DNA of 3,888 nt from a virus (lineage: Duplodnaviria; Heunggongvirae; Uroviricota; Caudoviricetes), in IMG/VR virus record IMGVR_UViG_2703718835_000005; one strand, given 5' to 3'. Both the position numbers and the translations under genes were made by a program. Shown piece after piece: positions 1 to 3,399 of the stretch. The notes beneath the pieces are model-generated. The model had not been told where the DNA came from. It made no database searches and worked only from the letters and a program-made list of their open reading frames with translations. Every line of letters starts with the position of its first letter. Position 1 is the stretch's first letter.

Positions 1-1032
1 TCAAAAAATTGCTATTGATGTTGGTAGTGTTGCCAGCGGATTAAACCGTAATGCAGTTTCCAGGTGATCCGGTGCCAGATGTGCGTAACGCATAGTCATT
101 TTTATGTCGTGATGTCCGAGGATTTTTTGCAAAGCAAGGATATTTCCACCCGACATCATGAAATGCGCCGCAAACGTATGGCGCAGAACGTGTGTCAGTT
201 GACCGCGAGGGAGCACGATAGACGTTTTTTCCATCACGGATAAAAATTGAAAATAGCAGTCTGTAAAGAAATTGAACCCATCAAGCGCCATGATCTCTTC
301 GTAAAGCTCTTTACTGATAGGGATGCTTCTGTTTTTCTTCCCCTTCGTTCTTACAAAGGTAATTCGGTATTTGGTCACTTGCGAGCGGGTAAGATTTATT
401 GCTTCTCGCCAGCGTGCGCCTGTGCTTAGGCATATCTTGACTACCAGTGCCAGAATTGGGTCCTGACGTTTGCAATCAGCCAGCAGTTCAACAATCTGCT
501 CATGGGTAAGCCATGCCATCTCTTTTTCTGCGATGGTGAATTTTCGCATGTTCTCCAGTGGGTTCGGATACGACCATTCACCCAGGCGGGATAGTTCGCT
601 AAAAACACTACTTAGATAGCTTTGCTCTAGGTTAATGGTGACCGGGCTTGCTCCTTTCTTCCATTTCTCGCTGAAGTAGATCTCACCTGTCAGGCGTTTA
701 TCTCGATAGTGGGCAAACATTTTAGAGGTTAGATCAGTTGCAAGGGGATTGCCCAGAGCGTCAACCATCAGCAGCAATTTGTCATAGACATGCTGCCCAG
801 CAGTCAGTGATTTACCATGTAGTTTGAACCATAGCTCAACCACGTCTTTCAGTGTTCGACGATCCACTGATTCACCTAGCCAGGGCTTTGCTTCGGTTTC
901 TTCCATCGTGTGACGCTCAAAAGCCAGTGCTTCGCCTTTGGTGGCGAATTGTTTACGCACACGACGCCCACTACGTCCGGCGGGGTAACATTCGCAAAGC
1001 CATTTTCCTGTGGTGAGTTTTCGTACAGCCAT
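1..1032 (-). CDS. int: Tyrosine-type site-specific integrase (P2/186-family phage integrase), 343 aa from the ATG at 1032-1030; stop codon at 3-1
   Basis: Seen in translation: N-terminus MAVRKLTTGKWLCECYPAGRSGRRVRKQFATKGEALAFE is typical of P2/186-type integrases; tyrosine recombinase motifs are present (LSTGARWREA, HVLRHTFA, ILGHHDIKMTMRYAHL with the catalytic Tyr). On the - strand GGAGGG (complement of 1041-1046) lies 8 nt upstream of the ATG at 1032. The ORF track extends to 1110 (MYGRS...) but that 26-aa extension has no RBS and would contain the candidate promoter/LexA box, so the shorter start is preferred. Confidence 0.9.
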   Translation of the reverse strand: MAVRKLTTGKWLCECYPAGRSGRRVRKQFATKGEALAFERHTMEETEAKPWLGESVDRRTLKDVVELWFKLHGKSLTAGQHVYDKLLLMVDALGNPLATDLTSKMFAHYRDKRLTGEIYFSEKWKKGASPVTINLEQSYLSSVFSELSRLGEWSYPNPLENMRKFTIAEKEMAWLTHEQIVELLADCKRQDPILALVVKICLSTGARWREAINLTRSQVTKYRITFVRTKGKKNRSIPISKELYEEIMALDGFNFFTDCYFQFLSVMEKTSIVLPRGQLTHVLRHTFAAHFMMSGGNILALQKILGHHDIKMTMRYAHLAPDHLETALRFNPLATLPTSIAIF

Positions 1033-1056
1033 AAAAAATGCCCTCCAATAGAGAGC

Positions 1057-1085
1057 ATTTTTACTGTATGTATAACCAGTGTCAA
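1057..1085 (-). promoter_or_regulatory. Candidate sigma70 promoter reading leftward into int: -35 TTGACA (complement of 1080-1085), 17-bp spacer, -10 AAAAAT (complement of 1057-1062)
   Basis: Seen in sequence: perfect consensus -35 hexamer; the -10 is weak but keeps the critical A at position 2 and T at position 6. The predicted start (~1050) lies just upstream of the int RBS (1041-1046). The LexA-like box fills the spacer. Function is inferred. Confidence 0.3.
1062..1081. promoter_or_regulatory. Candidate LexA (SOS) box TACTGTATGTATAACCAGTG (CTGT-N8-CCAG core)
   Basis: Seen in sequence: 16/20 identity by hand to the E. coli LexA consensus TACTGTATATATATACAGTA, with CTG and CAG triplets at the correct spacing and an AT-rich centre. 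A CCAG right half occurs in the natural uvrB box as I recall it. It is the only CTGT-N8-CAG-like element I found in the window, and it sits in the spacer of the candidate int promoter. Confidence 0.45.
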
Positions 1086-1220
1086 TGTATGAAATACTGC
1101 GACCATACATCTCACTGAAGCCATAATGAAGTAGGCTATTCTTTTTGCTATGTGATCATGTAACTTTTGCGGTTAACCTGTGGCTCATTTTTATTTTAGG
1201 CGCAGATATAAAAGCAAAAG

Positions 1221-1412
1221 TTATCGTGAGTTTTTAGTACAGATTTTTTTGGATTTACTAATAGTTCCATCATTGCAAACGAATTTGCCATCTGAGGTAC
1301 AGTGAGAAACACCTCCCTTTTTCCCTGAGCAGGGATAATTTCTAGCATAGGTAGCTAGTGGGTTTAATAACAAAGAACATGACAAAACCACAAAAAATAC
1401 CTTACCAAGCAT
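1221..1412 (-). CDS. Small secreted cysteine-rich protein (63-aa precursor; predicted signal peptide, ~40-aa basic mature peptide with 4 Cys); lysogeny-expressed moron candidate
   Basis: Seen in sequence: ATG at 1412-1410 preceded by GGGAGG (complement of 1418-1423) with a 5-nt spacer; the start is only 15 nt downstream of the cI stop, same strand. Translation [23 protein letters not shown]|[40 protein letters not shown] has a short n-region, hydrophobic core and AxA-like signal peptidase I site (TYA). Region is AT-rich (~37% GC by hand count). Function unknown. Confidence 0.6.
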
Positions 1413-1427
1413 AATTTCCTCCCGGTA

Positions 1428-1997
1428 CTATTTAACATACTTGACTGTTAAACTTATAATTTTACCAATTATTTCAATGTCTTCTATCTTGCATTCGAAG
1501 GCTCTGTTTCCACCCTCGACGAAGATTCTTCCACCGGGTAAACGAGTAATGTCACGGATCGTTATTTCGCCATCAATACTTATTACCCATTTACCATCAC
1601 GTATATCATCAAATTCCTTATCACAAATAAATTCAGAATTATTATCTGTGATTACAAAAAGATTCTTGAATGTCGACGGTAGAAATTCTCTATCGAAAAT
1701 ATAAAAACCGTCTTCACACAAGGCCCCATCAGATAATACATATTTAGCAACTTCCATAGTATTTGTATTACCTGAAGTTTGCTTTGAACCATGCCCGGTT
1801 GTGAGCCAATTAAGCGAGGTGCCTGTTTCAAGGGCGCACTGGATTACCCATTCTGCTGGGAATGAGTCACGCATGTAGCGTGTGGCGAGTGTACTTTTAG
1901 AGATTCCTAAATGATCGCACAACGCCTGTCGAGTCTTGAATCCATAAGCTTCTACCATGCGCTCTATGGCGCCTCGTCCGCCTTTCTCCAAATTCAT
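1428..1997 (-). CDS. cI: Phage 186-type CI immunity repressor (N-terminal HTH domain plus C-terminal oligomerisation domain), 189 aa from ATG at 1997-1995
   Basis: Seen in translation: N-terminal HTH-like segment (AYGFKTRQALCDHLGISKSTLATRYMRD), and a C-terminal region (IRDITRLPGGRIFVEGGNRAFECKIEDIEIIG) compatible with 186 CI architecture as I recall it. GGAG (complement of 2003-2006) lies 5 nt upstream of the ATG at 1997; the GTG at 2003 used by the ORF track would overlap that RBS. Position is divergent from the apl/cII operon and upstream of int, as in phage 186. Confidence 0.8.
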   Translation of the reverse strand: MNLEKGGRGAIERMVEAYGFKTRQALCDHLGISKSTLATRYMRDSFPAEWVIQCALETGTSLNWLTTGHGSKQTSGNTNTMEVAKYVLSDGALCEDGFYIFDREFLPSTFKNLFVITDNNSEFICDKEFDDIRDGKWVISIDGEITIRDITRLPGGRIFVEGGNRAFECKIEDIEIIGKIISLTVKYVK

Positions 1998-2021
1998 GGT
2001 CACTCCAAGTGAACTTTTATC

Positions 2022-2077: not shown

Positions 2078-2122
2078 CGTATTCGTCCTGATTAATCATC
2101 ATTAAACGAGGAATGTTGCATC

Positions 2123-2344
2123 ATGAGACCTAACATTTCAATCACTCTTACCACGCCTCATGTGACTATTGAACGCTATAGCGAGCTGACAGGGCTATCC
2201 ATCGATACCATCAATGACATGTTAGCTGATGGACGCCTTATCCGTCACCGTCTGCGCAAAGATAAAAAACGCGAAAAAGTGATGATCAACATAGCAGCAA
2301 TGACCGTTGATGCGCTTTCAGAATGCAATCTAAACCTTAATTAG
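2123..2344 (+). CDS. apl: Apl/Cox-like small HTH protein (excisionase and switch-repressor position of phage 186 Apl), 73 aa
   Basis: Seen in sequence: first gene of the rightward operon, divergent from cI; GAGGAA (2108-2113) lies 9 nt upstream of the ATG at 2123; translation contains an HTH-like segment ([25 protein letters not shown]) and a basic tail. Identity rests on position and size; I recall 186 Apl as longer (87 aa). Confidence 0.6.
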
Positions 2345-2376: not shown

Positions 2377-2403
2377 ATGTTTGATTACCAAGTTTCCAAA
2401 CAT
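2377..2403 (-). promoter_or_regulatory. CII-type operator: inverted repeat ATGTTTG (2377-2383) / CAAACAT (2397-2403), half-site centres 20 bp apart; candidate CII-activated establishment promoter pE reading leftward toward cI
   Basis: Seen in sequence: perfect 7-bp inverted half-sites separated by 13 bp (two helical turns centre to centre); the left half-site is the cII start codon itself (ATG TTT G). From my recollection of phage 186, CII binds ATGTTTG half-sites spaced two turns apart at pE. No good -10 is visible leftward (weak TATTTC, complement of 2354-2359), which fits an activator-dependent promoter. Confidence 0.55.
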
Positions 2404-2886
2404 CCACATTTTGATGAAGCCTGTCGTGCATTTGCACTGCGCCACAATCTGGTGCAACTGGCAGAACGTGCAGGCATGAATGTGCAGATTCTGCGGAACA
2501 AGCTGAACCCAGCTCAGCCTCATTTATTAACCGCACCAGAAATCTGGCTGCTTACCGATCTGACTGAAGATTCAACGCTGGTAGATGGTTTTCTGGCACA
2601 GATTCATTGTCTGCCATGTGTACCGATTAATGAGGTGGCAAAAGAGAAACTGCCACATTACGTCATGAGTGCAACCGCAGAGATCGGGCGTGTTGCTGCA
2701 GGTGCGGTGTCTGGCGATGTAAAAACCTGTGCCGGTCGTCGTGATGCTATCAGCAGCATTAACTCTGTAACACGACTGATGGCGCTGGCGGCTGTTTCAT
2801 TGCAGGCCCGTTTACAGGCTAATCCTGCGATGGCGAGTGCAGTTGATACCGTGACTGGCCTCGGTGCTTCATTCGGTTTGCTGTGA
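2377..2886 (+). CDS. cII: Phage 186-type CII lysogeny-establishment transcriptional activator, 169 aa from ATG at 2377
   Basis: Seen in sequence: AGAGG (2364-2368) lies 8 nt upstream of the ATG at 2377; the ORF track's TTG at 2371 is less likely. The 169-aa length matches my recollection of 186 CII; HTH-like segment [25 protein letters not shown]; gene order apl-cII as in 186. Confidence 0.8.
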
Positions 2887-2893
2887 GGTGCTT

Positions 2894-3094
2894 ATGCTGA
2901 CGAAAGAACCATCATTTGCATCGCTGCTGGTAAAACAAAGTCCGGCAATGCACTACGGTCACGGCTGGATCATGGGTGAGGATGGTAAACGCTGGCATCC
3001 GTGCCGTTCGCAAGATGAATTATTGGCAGAACTATCAACGAAAAAACGGGGGAACAAATGGCTATTGAAGGCGCTGCGGCGACTGTTCCATTAA
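2894..3094 (+). CDS. Small early-operon protein, 66 aa (in the position of phage 186 fil); function unknown
   Basis: Seen in sequence: ATG at 2894 is 8 nt after the cII stop (TGA 2884-2886), with GAGG (2885-2888) 5 nt upstream. Translation MLTKEPSFASLLVKQSPAMHYGHGWIMGEDGKRWHPCRSQDELLAELSTKKRGNKWLLKALRRLFH. The GTG at 2864 used by the ORF track would overlap the end of cII and has no RBS. The fil assignment is by synteny only. Confidence 0.5.
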   Translation: MLTKEPSFASLLVKQSPAMHYGHGWIMGEDGKRWHPCRSQDELLAELSTKKRGNKWLLKALRRLFH

Positions 3095-3399
3095 GCCCCG
3101 GTGAACGCCTGAATGGACTTAATCACATTGCGGAGTTAAGGGCGAAAGTATTTGGCCTGAATATTGAGTCAGAGCTGGAGCGGTTTATTAAAGATATGCG
3201 TGATCCACGGGATATCAATAATGAACAAAATAAACGGGCACTGGCTGCTATATTCTTTATGGCAAAAATTCCAGCTGAACGTCATAGCATCAGCATTAAT
3301 GAGCTGACCACTGACGAAAAGCGGGAGCTGATTAAAGCAATGAATCATTTTCGTGCAGTGGTGAGCTTATTTCCCAGACGGCTAACCATGCCGAATTAA
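3058..3399 (+). CDS. Early-operon protein, 113 aa (in the position of phage 186 dhr); function unknown
   Basis: Seen in sequence: GGGGG (3048-3052) lies 5 nt upstream of the ATG at 3058; the start overlaps the 3' end of the preceding ORF by 37 nt in a different frame; TAA stop at 3397-3399. The dhr assignment is by synteny only. Confidence 0.6.
   Translation: MAIEGAAATVPLSPGERLNGLNHIAELRAKVFGLNIESELERFIKDMRDPRDINNEQNKRALAAIFFMAKIPAERHSISINELTTDEKRELIKAMNHFRAVVSLFPRRLTMPN

Follow-up and report, generated by a model that had tools for sequence, protein, structure and literature searches.

Why should a 186-like prophage of Escherichia coli carry a 63-codon gene between its immunity repressor gene, cI, and its integrase gene, int, an interval that is empty in phage 186? 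The gene lies in a 3,888-nucleotide stretch of the IMG/VR virus record IMGVR_UViG_2703718835_000005 (hereafter the window), and its host is a 186-like (Peduoviridae) E. coli prophage integrated beside rcdA (Table 1). The repressor matches the Pfam profiles Phage_CI_repr (2.8e-33) and Phage_CI_C (2.5e-27) and is 33% identical to 186 CI, while the integrase is 55% identical to 186 Int. In phage 186, cI (22433..23011) and int (21423..22433) overlap by 1 nt; in the window they are separated by 395 bp (1033-1427), and the gene is thus an insertion relative to 186, as had been proposed from the sequence alone. This sequence-only reading had described an AT-rich insert of about 400 bp, which is correct for both size and composition (GC 0.36 in the ORF and downstream spacer vs 0.456 across the whole window), but the AT-richness is not confined to the insert: the C-terminal half of cI has a GC content of 0.337, and the AT-rich zone is the entire 3' part of the immunity module. 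The ATG start codon is the complement of 1410-1412, 15 nt (1413-1427) from the TAG stop codon of cI (complement of 1428-1430), and this spacing, together with the GGGAGG ribosome-binding site that had been pointed out within it, can be read directly from the sequence.

Table 1. Features of the cI-int region of the window. Coordinates of int and the cI start at 1997 are taken from RefSeq, where an identical locus is annotated.
Feature	Position	Strand	Details
Tyrosine integrase (int)	1..1032	-	Pfam Int_N and Phage_integrase; RefSeq annotation; downstream gene of operon
int leader, conserved	1033..1091	-	TTGACA-17-AAAAAT at 1085..1057; Shine-Dalgarno GGAGGG at 1046..1041, read from sequence
Variable cargo slot of lysogenic operon	1092..1427		GC 0.366
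10-bp inverted repeat AACUUUUGC..GCAAAAGUU	1161..1223	-	starts at ORF stop
63-codon YdcA-family gene (63-aa product)	1221..1412	-	includes TAA stop at 1221-1223; ORF list
Mature peptide	1224..1343	-	codons 24-63; 40 aa, 4.3 kDa, pI 9.7, charge +7, 4 Cys
Predicted Sec/SPase-I signal peptide	1344..1412	-	codons 1-23, cleavage after TYA; rule-based
Shine-Dalgarno GGGAGG	1418..1423	-	5-nt spacer (1413-1417) to ATG; read from sequence
186-type cI immunity repressor	1428..2003	-	RefSeq start 1997; upstream gene, same operon
Putative lysogenic promoter, pL equivalent	2113..2141	-	TTGAAA 2141-2136, 17-nt spacer, CAACAT 2118-2113

The ORF is a prophage member of the already catalogued YdcA family. Its product scores 114.6 bits over its full length against NF007463, the NCBIfam model of the family (PRK10040; curated cut-off 93), matches phrog_6000 (PHROG 6000) at 3e-34, carries the precomputed label Pfam PF27300 and the database name 'YdcA family protein', and contains the PCSGxKGG, FxCxDG and SxSK motifs as well as the cysteine spacing of the family. 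A search of Pfam profiles at E<=10 gave only a meaningless match to GULLO2, because PF27300 is newer than the Pfam release searched. Homologue searches put the size of the family at 445 representatives (50% identity) and 1,524 clusters (90% identity) and recovered YdcA of E. coli K-12 (b1419; PRK10040 NF007462/NF007463/NF007464, Pfam PF27300, PHROG 6000), and a kinship with YdcA that the sequence-only reading had tentatively suggested is borne out by profiles and homologues alike. The two proteins are 57% identical and share the same architecture, in which a Sec signal is followed by P-C-S-G-x-K-G-G-[VI]-S-H-C ... G-K-F-V-C-N-D-G-[ST]-x-S-x-S-K-K-x-C with the same cysteine spacing. However, K-12 ydcA resides in the chromosomal cybB-ydcA-trg locus rather than in a prophage cI operon, and the ORF reaches only 68.5 bits against NF007462, the K-12-type YdcA equivalog (cut-off 118). 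On account of both this score and this context, the ORF is a paralogue, not an orthologue, of K-12 YdcA.

The gene is genuine and under strong purifying selection. Between diverged E. coli alleles, the mature peptide shows 9-12 synonymous vs 1-4 nonsynonymous differences (10 and 1 for one of these alleles), corresponding to a dN/dS of 0.02-0.06, with 0.04-0.10 for the whole ORF. The cysteine spacing C-x9-C-x6/7-C-x11-C is found in all 87 of 87 family members examined, the window ORF among them. The sequence-only reading had named a lack of conserved cysteine spacing or purifying selection among homologues as one ground for refutation, and both are present. Of 5426 complete E. coli genomes, 595 contain the gene, so that about one in nine of them, including the B/BL21-lineage strain BLR(DE3) among other B strains, carries it in an operon expected to be on in the lysogen; among the 1120 E. 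coli genomes that have a related int, 593 show this arrangement.

The comparison of cI-int junctions showed that the ORF occupies a variable cargo slot, which is where it had been suspected to lie, and it is an accessory ('moron') gene of the prophage. Homology to sister prophages with other cargo resumes at window position ~1090-1092, and four alternative slot contents are found at the same rcdA attachment site, those of the sister prophages being PD-Lambda-1/DUF4041 (PADLOC match at 7e-120), a 323-aa protein of unknown nature, and a YdcA-like protein together with a KAP NTPase. PD-Lambda-1 is thus found in exactly the same slot of near-identical prophages, but it is unrelated to the ORF in sequence and in likely mechanism, being 558 aa long, either cytoplasmic or anchored in a membrane, and nuclease-like at its C-terminus. 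A closer functional and positional precedent is provided by the P2-related vibriophage K139, with the gene order cI-orf2-glo-int, in which glo is annotated as 'periplasmic protein; involved in phage exclusion'. Glo is periplasmic, as predicted for the ORF product, and its gene has a place in the lysogenic operon with cI on one side and int on the other, but Glo has 137 aa, its gene lies one gene away from cI, and the protein displays no similarity to the ORF product (BLASTP E=0.17). In addition, the cI-int interval of K139-like phages has been described as a defence hotspot (Rousset 2022), and the literature reports the interval between int and the primase gene (gpA) as a hotspot in P2-like phages. 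The occupants of the sister slots, glo in K139 and the published hotspot together uphold the earlier view that this is a typical position for conversion or exclusion genes.

Co-transcription of the ORF with cI in the lysogen is strongly implied by the arrangement of signals, because the 15-nt gap is filled by the ribosome-binding site, no terminator was detected on the gene strand, and a putative equivalent of the lysogenic promoter pL is present. The position of the latter relative to the apl ATG matches that of the annotated 186 pL (hexamers TTGCGA and CATGAT), and it is from this positional homology that we infer the equivalence; the element scored under the threshold of a generic promoter scan. 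A terminator scan of the minus strand found nothing, and no convincing candidate was seen from the ORF to int. The inverted repeat that begins at the ORF stop is unconvincing as a terminator, having an RNA fold z-score of -0.96 and lacking a U-tract. The int leader is retained in all slot variants, and its promoter-like element, which scored 10/12 in the promoter scan, is a candidate promoter. The coupling to cI is tighter still in phage HP2, where the ATG of the homologue and the cI stop have 1 nt in common. An Rfam search of the whole window returned zero RNA families.

Family statistics also agree with the previously proposed layout of the product, a signal peptide followed by a lysine-rich mature peptide of 40 residues with four cysteines. 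The predicted signal peptide has an N-terminal lysine, a hydrophobic core (10-aa Kyte-Doolittle maximum 2.73) and T-x-A at positions -3/-1, and across the family K or R occurs among the first eight residues in 98% of members, a small residue at -3 in 76 of 83 and alanine at -1 in 79 of 83. Signal-peptide sequences are otherwise hypervariable, whereas the mature core and its cysteine spacing are near-invariant, the residues concerned being P27, C28, S29, G30, K31, K32, G33, G34, V35, H37, C38, F44, C46, D48 and G49 and, further along, S52, S54, K55 and C58. This core is almost unchanged from Rhizobiales to Enterobacteriaceae, that is, in alpha-, beta- and gammaproteobacteria. An AF2 model has a pLDDT of 84-90 across residues 30-60. 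Judging by sequence rules and by the one solved homologue, the product is probably exported via Sec and forms two disulfides in the periplasm. The mature peptide would begin at Arg24 and have a mass of 4,293 Da, less 4 Da for the two disulfides, for which we tentatively predict the pairs C28-C58 and C38-C46.

That homologue, the only relative with a solved structure, is Dis2 (Lpg0823; PDB 7MUC/7MUD), an outer-membrane-cap subunit of Dot/Icm, a type IV secretion system (T4SS) of Legionella pneumophila. The similarity is significant (phmmer E=3.2e-5, profile 3.4e-5), Dis2 is the top PDB match in Foldseek (prob 0.98), and the whole mature peptide resembles lobe 1 of Dis2, with all four cysteines aligned to disulfide-forming cysteines. 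Both are small, disulfide-stapled modules that are exported via Sec, which for the ORF is a prediction. They differ in that Dis2 is a stoichiometric T4SS component of 124 aa with two lobes and five disulfides, whereas the ORF encodes a single lobe with four cysteines and has cI and int, and no T4SS genes, as neighbours; two-lobed versions of ~105-120 aa from betaproteobacterial prophages are closer to the Dis2 architecture. In the secretion system, the lobes of Dis2 are pinned by disulfides just beneath the outer membrane, where the protein is clamped on lipoproteins of a DNA/protein translocation machine: it contacts and bridges DotC, DotD and DotK at the outer-membrane face and orders the DotD N-terminus. 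Dis2 is dispensable and makes no contact with the T4SS channel.

The family recurs in the same kind of position in other phages. The mini-gene again stands behind a repressor gene in distant P2-like phages, namely HP2 and S2, where it is unannotated, and prophages of Yersinia and of betaproteobacteria. cI lies directly upstream of the homologue in loci from nine gammaproteobacterial species and in HP2, and these CI proteins are, near-identical relatives aside, 31-39% identical to that of the window. In eight of nine betaproteobacterial P2-like prophages the gene is co-oriented downstream of an HTH_3/S24 repressor, the exception being locus L022, with no repressor within the region covered. That an almost invariant core recurs directly behind repressors diverged to ~30% identity in P2-like phages is a strong signal that the gene is important for temperate phages. 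Among 80 species-representative loci, at least 26 belong to recognisable prophages and others reside on small plasmids, for example, a 3.9-kb MOBQ plasmid of only five genes, on which the family member is located beside traD/mobA. In HP2 the gene after the homologue encodes a secreted OB-fold protein, and in Neisseria prophages a family member adjoins Mu Gam. The YdcA module also forms the N-terminal part of fusions with secreted nucleases of three unrelated folds (SNase in two cases, Endonuclease_NS in three, PLDc_2 in one) and is fused to the periplasmic domain of the type VI secretion system (T6SS) protein VasL; the nuclease fusions are a small minority in a family that overwhelmingly stands alone. 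A literature query by protein accession and 'PF27300' found no functional study, and the literature that was found treats separately the y-gene ydcA and the prophage moron that the annotations of the reference phages HP2 and S2 omit, which our analysis joins.

Taken together, the best explanation we can offer, albeit a tentative one, is that the ORF is a prophage moron encoding a YdcA-family envelope exclusion factor that is made and exported by the lysogen. According to the model suggested by the operon architecture, the lysogenic promoter would give rise to a cI-ORF-int mRNA, from which the ORF would be translated by means of its own strong ribosome-binding site, so that the lysogen produces the protein continuously. 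The 23-residue signal peptide would direct it to Sec and be removed by signal peptidase I, and the positively charged 40-residue peptide would be oxidised in the periplasm to a small beta-hairpin knot with two disulfides, presumably equivalent to one Dis2 lobe. In the periplasm close to the outer membrane, it may bind a conserved polyanionic or envelope ligand, candidates for which are incoming DNA or an outer-membrane-proximal protein or lipid site required by ejecting phages. The lysogen and its prophage might thereby be protected in the manner of K139 Glo from the same operon position.

The least certain step, and one that we put forward somewhat more hesitantly than the model as a whole, is the last, namely that the product acts in superinfection or DNA-entry exclusion. 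Small envelope proteins that block DNA entry or receptor use are well known, for example, Sp and Imm of T4, SieA of P22, Llp of T5 and Cor of phi80 and N15, but these classical exclusion proteins, which would not be expected to be homologous to the ORF product, comprise lipoproteins, proteins of the inner membrane and a lysozyme inhibitor, and to our knowledge none is a 4-kDa disulfide knot. The exclusion reading is further weakened because cargo slots also carry morons unrelated to defence, which makes guilt by location a weak argument; because the PADLOC defence models contain no family that matches the ORF (nor did any match orf1(S) of HP2); because Dis2 avoids the T4SS channel and is dispensable; and because ydcA of strains K-12 and W has been tied only to acid induction and tolerance of 3-hydroxypropionate (3-HP). 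Since the mature product is short enough to be synthesised chemically, both exclusion and ligand binding are cheap to test.

A different answer, which we regard as possible but rather unlikely, is lysogenic conversion for the benefit of host fitness, as modelled by lambda morons of the bor/lom type. The prophage copy would then be an extra, constitutively expressed YdcA paralogue that performs the same housekeeping job without any direct effect on phages, and this job might be, for instance, the stabilising or buffering of the envelope under acid or organic-acid stress. Many members are indeed chromosomal with no phage nearby, which argues for a function in the envelope at large and not for one devoted to defence against phages; such non-mobile copies exist in several genera, among them E. 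coli ydcA between cybB and trg, the Atlantibacter/Citrobacter genes near trmD-rplS, and a Providencia gene flanked by apparent prc and htpX, which are envelope-quality genes (judged by eye). Moreover, acid reportedly induces E. coli ydcA, and E. coli W is reported to become more sensitive to 300 mM 3-HP when the gene is deleted; the near-invariance of the core in three proteobacterial classes would suit a universal envelope ligand, and the lack of a defence HMM match fits as well. However, E. coli lysogens already have a chromosomal ydcA, and plain redundancy offers no obvious benefit. The share of loci in prophages and on small plasmids, the defence genes among the other slot occupants, and the fusions to nucleases and to T4SS and T6SS components, which a stress buffer leaves unexplained, likewise argue against a host-fitness role.

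Dis2 itself suggests another reading, in which the module has no activity of its own but serves in localisation, as a disulfide 'staple' that docks on outer-membrane lipoproteins or peptidoglycan. The stand-alone form would modulate a host envelope machine (a secretion system, a pilus or an outer-membrane lipoprotein complex), such as one used by phages as a receptor or by DNA as a conduit, and any exclusion would follow indirectly from the masking of a receptor. The bridging of three lipoproteins by Dis2, the VasL fusion and the anchor-like placement N-terminal to several unrelated enzymes are all consistent with such an adaptor, and the nuclease fusions could reflect an anchoring role instead of DNA binding. 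On the other hand, neither E. coli K-12 nor B has a Dot/Icm-like system, so that no partner is evident, and the extreme conservation of basic, serine and glycine residues across phyla favours a non-protein or universal ligand. We consider this proposal improbable, while acknowledging that it overlaps with the exclusion factor to an extent that computation cannot separate.

A bolder version of the exclusion reading, on which we place equally little weight, is that the YdcA module represents a hitherto unrecognised mini-domain of the periplasm whose ligand is DNA, or a DNA conduit close to the outer membrane, and so gates DNA traffic through the envelope. The link to envelope-crossing DNA, which also counts in favour of the exclusion factor as such, is drawn from the nuclease fusions, the T4SS subunit Dis2, the MOBQ plasmid, the Mu Gam neighbour and the OB-fold neighbour in HP2. 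If true, P2-like, Mu-like and siphovirus prophages, small MOBQ plasmids and a T4SS would all deploy the module, its fusion to three unrelated secreted nucleases would be explained, the stand-alone prophage form would be the first of a new class of factors, only 4 kDa in size, that exclude incoming DNA, and a first function would be assigned to both Dis2 and the E. coli orphan gene ydcA.

The size, the charge of +7 and the disulfides of the mature peptide are also reminiscent of defensins, which raises the question of whether it is a secreted bioactive peptide, that is, an antimicrobial or bacteriocin-like product or a periplasmic protease inhibitor of the knottin or potato-inhibitor-II type. 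This is very unlikely: the PDB matches to Pin-II proteinase inhibitors are insignificant (E 0.2-1.8), involve a single family and include a local one (FVC with G/D nearby), the fold matches give no support, no immunity, export or processing genes lie alongside, the family is often single-copy and chromosomal, and a Sec signal by itself leaves a peptide in the periplasm. Even less probable is that the product of the E. coli/Klebsiella clade is a lipoprotein cleaved by signal peptidase II at L-S-C12 within the hydrophobic segment. The stretch VVLSC(12)S in the signal region is loosely lipobox-like and one UniRef entry, a Yersinia homologue, is named 'Lipoprotein', but Cys12 is missing from nearly all homologues, including that Yersinia protein, it is too near the N-terminus, with just ~7 hydrophobic residues ahead of it, and the conserved x-A cleavage motif sits 11 residues beyond it; unconserved and badly placed, it led us to reject this reading. 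Finally, a chance ORF or untranslated spacer, which the shortness of the gene, its AT-rich setting and the bare label 'hypothetical protein' in older RefSeq records might suggest, has already been refuted, by selection and homology (the dN/dS of the mature peptide, the NF007463 score above cut-off, and the invariant cysteine spacing and 1,524 clusters of the family), to which the strong ribosome-binding site adds.

Two database names found no support. DUF3761, the name of one UniRef entry and a family with a similar CxDGxxSxS motif, gave no match for the ORF or for P0293. The name 'Conjugal transfer protein', which UniRef gives to the exact protein, is unsupported, the nearest fact being the family member beside traD/mobA. 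Most of the literature found under 'ydcA' concerns the rhomboid gene of that name in Bacillus, or genes so called in studies of the gonococcal genetic island and of plasmid pS88.

The window is the lysogeny and early control region of a 186-like prophage. Its cI-int gap spans 395 bp with a GC content of 0.36, compared to 0.456 for the window; low GC is not limited to the gap, the C-terminal half of cI being at 0.337. In phage 186, cI and int share one base with nothing between them, and the sequence-only reading was right to call the gap an insert relative to that phage, as well as to place the ATG of the 63-codon mini-gene 15 nt past the cI stop codon and a GGGAGG ribosome-binding site 5 nt upstream of it. 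The window proteins are 33% (CI), 55% (Int), and 69% (CII) identical to their 186 counterparts. According to the RefSeq annotation, the fil-family and DUF5347 genes share 37 nt in different frames.

Genes of the window, with positions in nt
Gene	Position	Strand	Remark
int	1-1032	-	
63-codon ORF (mini-gene)	1221-1412	-	ATG = complement of 1410-1412
186-type cI	1428-1997/2003	-	stop TAG = complement of 1428-1430
apl-like gene	2123-2344	+	
cII	2377-2886	+	
fil-family gene	2894-3094	+	RefSeq annotation
DUF5347 gene	3058-3399	+	RefSeq annotation
DUF2732 gene		+	listed after the DUF5347 gene
TraR/DksA gene	from 3700	+	3' part cut off by window end

The kinship to YdcA that the sequence-only reading had tentatively suggested proved correct. 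The mini-gene product scores 114.6 bits against NCBIfam NF007463 (PRK10040.1-2; curated cut-off 93), matches phrog_6000 at 3e-34, and is 57% identical to chromosomal E. coli YdcA, which was recovered among the related loci. Every close homologue has PF27300 as its precomputed label. Databases already list the gene, and in newer RefSeq records it even bears a name ('YdcA family protein'); the family itself is functionally blank. Because the product falls below the cut-off of the K-12-type equivalog NF007462, the mini-gene is a paralogue of K-12 ydcA. Clustered at 50% identity, the family members from an exhaustive profile search come to 445 representatives; at 90% they form 1,524 clusters. They are distributed over the Alpha-, Beta-, and Gammaproteobacteria, with a few matches outside. 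The chromosomal ydcA of Shigella flexneri SFBU0723 (L063) has a changed signal-peptide/cleavage region (MKKLALILFMGTLIFLLCRCRHKPCSGSKRGISHC...), which looks like frameshift-and-recovery or gene decay; the adjoining genes are also fragmented.

In a comparison of six diverged mini-gene alleles, taken from E. coli and one Escherichia sp., the peptide stays unchanged while synonymous changes build up. The mature part differs from the L093 allele by 10 synonymous and 1 nonsynonymous changes (dN/dS 0.020), and dN/dS is 0.023 against L094 and 0.057 against L091 (86% identical), compared to 0.10-0.21 for cI in the same comparisons, as expected for purifying selection. The mini-gene DNA occurs in 595 of 5426 complete E. 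coli genomes, nearly always as a single chromosomal copy. Two points are established: the mini-gene belongs to the YdcA family and is strongly constrained, and a common E. coli prophage carries it as cargo in its lysogenic operon. Laboratory carriers of the B lineage include BLR(DE3) (L094, NZ_CP020368.1 855885-856076) and B-StaR (genome match H101), where prophage and mini-gene are present with allele WP_001321204.1.

The proposed signal peptide and four-cysteine mature peptide hold up family-wide. Across 84 distinct members, the first ~20-25 residues lack sequence conservation, yet are signal-peptide-like throughout: 98% have K/R among the first eight residues, the mean 10-residue Kyte-Doolittle value of the hydrophobic core is 2.8, position -1 is Ala in 79/83, and position -3 is a small residue in 76/83. 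The Cys spacing C-x9-C-x6/7-C-x11-C is found in 87/87 members, within a near-invariant core of P27, C28, S29, K32, G33, G34, C38, F44, C46, G49, S52, S54, K55, and C58. Predicted cleavage after T-Y-A23 would release a 40-residue, 4.3-kDa peptide (pI 9.7, net charge +7), for which AlphaFold2 (40-sequence alignment) gives a short helix and a β-hairpin (35-38 and 44-46), with pLDDT 84-90 over residues 30-60. From these patterns and a rule-based export call, we infer with good confidence that the product would be exported by Sec and form two periplasmic disulfides.

A sequence search of the PDB returned only one significant match, chain AN of 7MUC/7MUD, which is Dis2 (Lpg0823), a two-lobed subunit of the outer-membrane cap in the Dot/Icm T4SS of Legionella pneumophila (E = 3.2e-5 from the single sequence, 3.4e-5 from the family profile). 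The match aligns all four cysteines, and a second, weaker one covers the latter half of the chain. Dis2 touches DotK, DotC, and DotD; it takes no part in lining the channel, and assembly can proceed without it. Two published descriptions confine it to Legionella/Coxiella and do not mention YdcA. Two-lobed family members of ~105-120 residues in betaproteobacterial prophages have a similar architecture. Because of these members and the Dis2 match, we treat the product as a putative single-lobe homologue of the Dis2 repeat and not as a Dis2 family member.

Phage 186 is annotated with a lysogenic operon pL-cI-int-orf69 and marked promoter hexamers. In a switch-region alignment, the window's candidate pL hexamers, TTGAAA (2141-2136) and CAACAT (2118-2113) with a 17-nt spacer, occupy the exact positions of 186 pL (-35 TTGCGA, -10 CATGAT) relative to the apl ATG. 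The distance from cI to the mini-gene is too short for a terminator or promoter, and a terminator scan and fold test of the gene strand found no terminator-like element between mini-gene and int; a 10-bp inverted repeat past the mini-gene stop has no U-tract, and its RNA fold is not more stable than that of shuffled sequence (z = -0.96). The mini-gene is therefore almost certainly on the repressor mRNA, and we infer its co-transcription with cI, as predicted from this layout, with good confidence. On the opposite strand, the top σ70 consensus match of the scanned region (TTAACA-17-TATAAT, 11/12; 1432-1460) starts at the cI stop and reads antisense into cI; it may be either an antisense promoter or, the DNA being AT-rich, a fortuitous match.

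In prophages with closely related int and the same rcdA attachment site, the cI-int gap is a variable cargo slot, filled in four ways: by the mini-gene alone (this window; 593 genomes), by a 558-aa DUF4041 protein identified as PD-Lambda-1 (PADLOC, E = 7e-120; also in phages KP12 and vB_EcoM-813R9), by a 323-aa protein of unknown function accompanied by a different, longer cI, or by the mini-gene, still 15 nt behind cI, followed by a KAP-family NTPase. The variants become homologous again at window ~1091, shortly upstream of the int ribosome-binding site and a promoter-like TTGACA-17-AAAAAT. In two compared loci, cI has diverged from that of the window by 14.6% (L008, Escherichia sp. MOD1-EC7003) and 10.9% (L092), while the adjacent mini-genes differ by only 0.5-1.6% (0.5% in L008), which places probable breakpoints at or near the cI/ORF junction; recombination can part the mini-gene from cI. 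The PD-Lambda-1 genes (L002, Klebsiella phage KP12, 2596-4272; L089, 4617-6293) are annotated 'chromosome segregation ATPase' or 'DUF4041 domain-containing protein', and the KP12 record is filed under Vequintavirinae, yet its slot region is P2/186-like. An IS5-like ISKpn26 lies inside the int-ORF-cI interval of E. coli EA7 (NZ_CP069709.1, match H92), the prophage being otherwise 99.3% identical.

The repressor-adjacent position recurs in a survey of 80 genomes, each standing for one species and containing a family member. In nine, a 186/HP1-type cI ends just upstream and int lies downstream (Escherichia, Buttiauxella, three Yersinia, Haemophilus and other Pasteurellaceae, and a Bacillota-labelled bin whose locus is 98% identical to that of E. 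coli). Another nine are betaproteobacterial P2-like prophages, where the gene faces gpD/gpU and the tape-measure gene and, in 8/9, is co-oriented downstream of an HTH_3/S24 repressor; in the ninth (L022), no repressor was found in the region examined. Three are Neisseria Mu-like prophages with gam adjoining, and five are other prophage-like contexts with tail-tube and BRO-N neighbours. Reference phages HP2 and S2 contain an unannotated homologue of 60 codons; its ATG overlaps the cI stop, and orf1(S) and int come next. HP2 orf1(S) (L003, 3136-3900) encodes 254 aa with a signal-peptide-like N-terminal segment and a tRNA_anti-like OB-fold (Pfam, 2.8e-13), and is a predicted second exported protein of the same lysogenic operon. 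Elsewhere, the family member is a tail-module moron (Moraxella and Acinetobacter phages) or plasmid-borne, as in the 3916-bp mobilisable MOBQ plasmid pApiMCR53a of Acinetobacter pittii (L096), where it is one of only five genes (728-904), flanked by a small 'TraD' gene on one side and an unknown gene on the other. A. soli and Psychrobacter have similar plasmids of 4-5 kb.

The sequence-only reading had placed the mini-gene where conversion or exclusion genes sit. The finding is real, and both the description and this argument from placement find support. Sister prophages have validated defence genes in the slot. The P2-related vibriophage K139 has the same operon, cI-orf2-glo-int, in which Glo, although not homologous to the mini-gene product, is annotated 'periplasmic protein; involved in phage exclusion' and is also described as an immunity gene. 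Published surveys identify the cI-int interval as a defence hotspot in K139-like phages, and the int-to-primase (gpA) interval as a minor one in P2-like phages. In longer members, a minority in an overwhelmingly stand-alone family, the module precedes, at the N-terminal end, one of three unrelated nuclease folds: SNase (P0113; L062 ORF 4569-5318), Endonuclease_NS (P0164, P0183, P0253), and a PLD-like domain (P0191). Others show fusion to a T6SS VasL periplasmic domain (P0119) or tandem repeats (2x in P0083, 3x in P0081); P0160 and P0182 have an unidentified C-terminal domain in common. The literature searched contains neither these nuclease fusions nor the Dis2 link, the repressor-adjacent synteny in distant P2-like phages, or the HP2/S2 gene. 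Position, fusions, company (a T4SS core, mobilisable plasmids, Mu Gam, the HP2 OB-fold protein), and chemistry (a charge of +7; Lys, Ser, Gly, and His at invariant positions) suggest that the product works in the outer-membrane-proximal periplasm, at DNA or a DNA-transit site. It may act in envelope-level exclusion or gating of DNA entry, a hypothesis we advance tentatively.

The main rival, a host-fitness or envelope role common to chromosomal ydcA, is in our view only slightly less likely, and several points speak for it and against a dedicated anti-phage role: the mini-gene product matches no PADLOC defence model, the only phenotypes that the literature gives for E. coli ydcA are induction by acid and, in a deletion mutant, sensitivity to 3-hydroxypropionate, and many family copies are chromosomal. 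Clearly chromosomal loci in the survey include E. coli cybB-ydcA-trg, Atlantibacter/Citrobacter near trmD-rplS, and Providencia (L033, L042, L073, L077), where the flanking genes are, by eye, presumably prc and htpX. These Providencia proteins are extended at the C-terminus by a long run of ~12-residue repeats rich in Lys, Glu, and Ala (..KEKATKA.DKDSAKA..).
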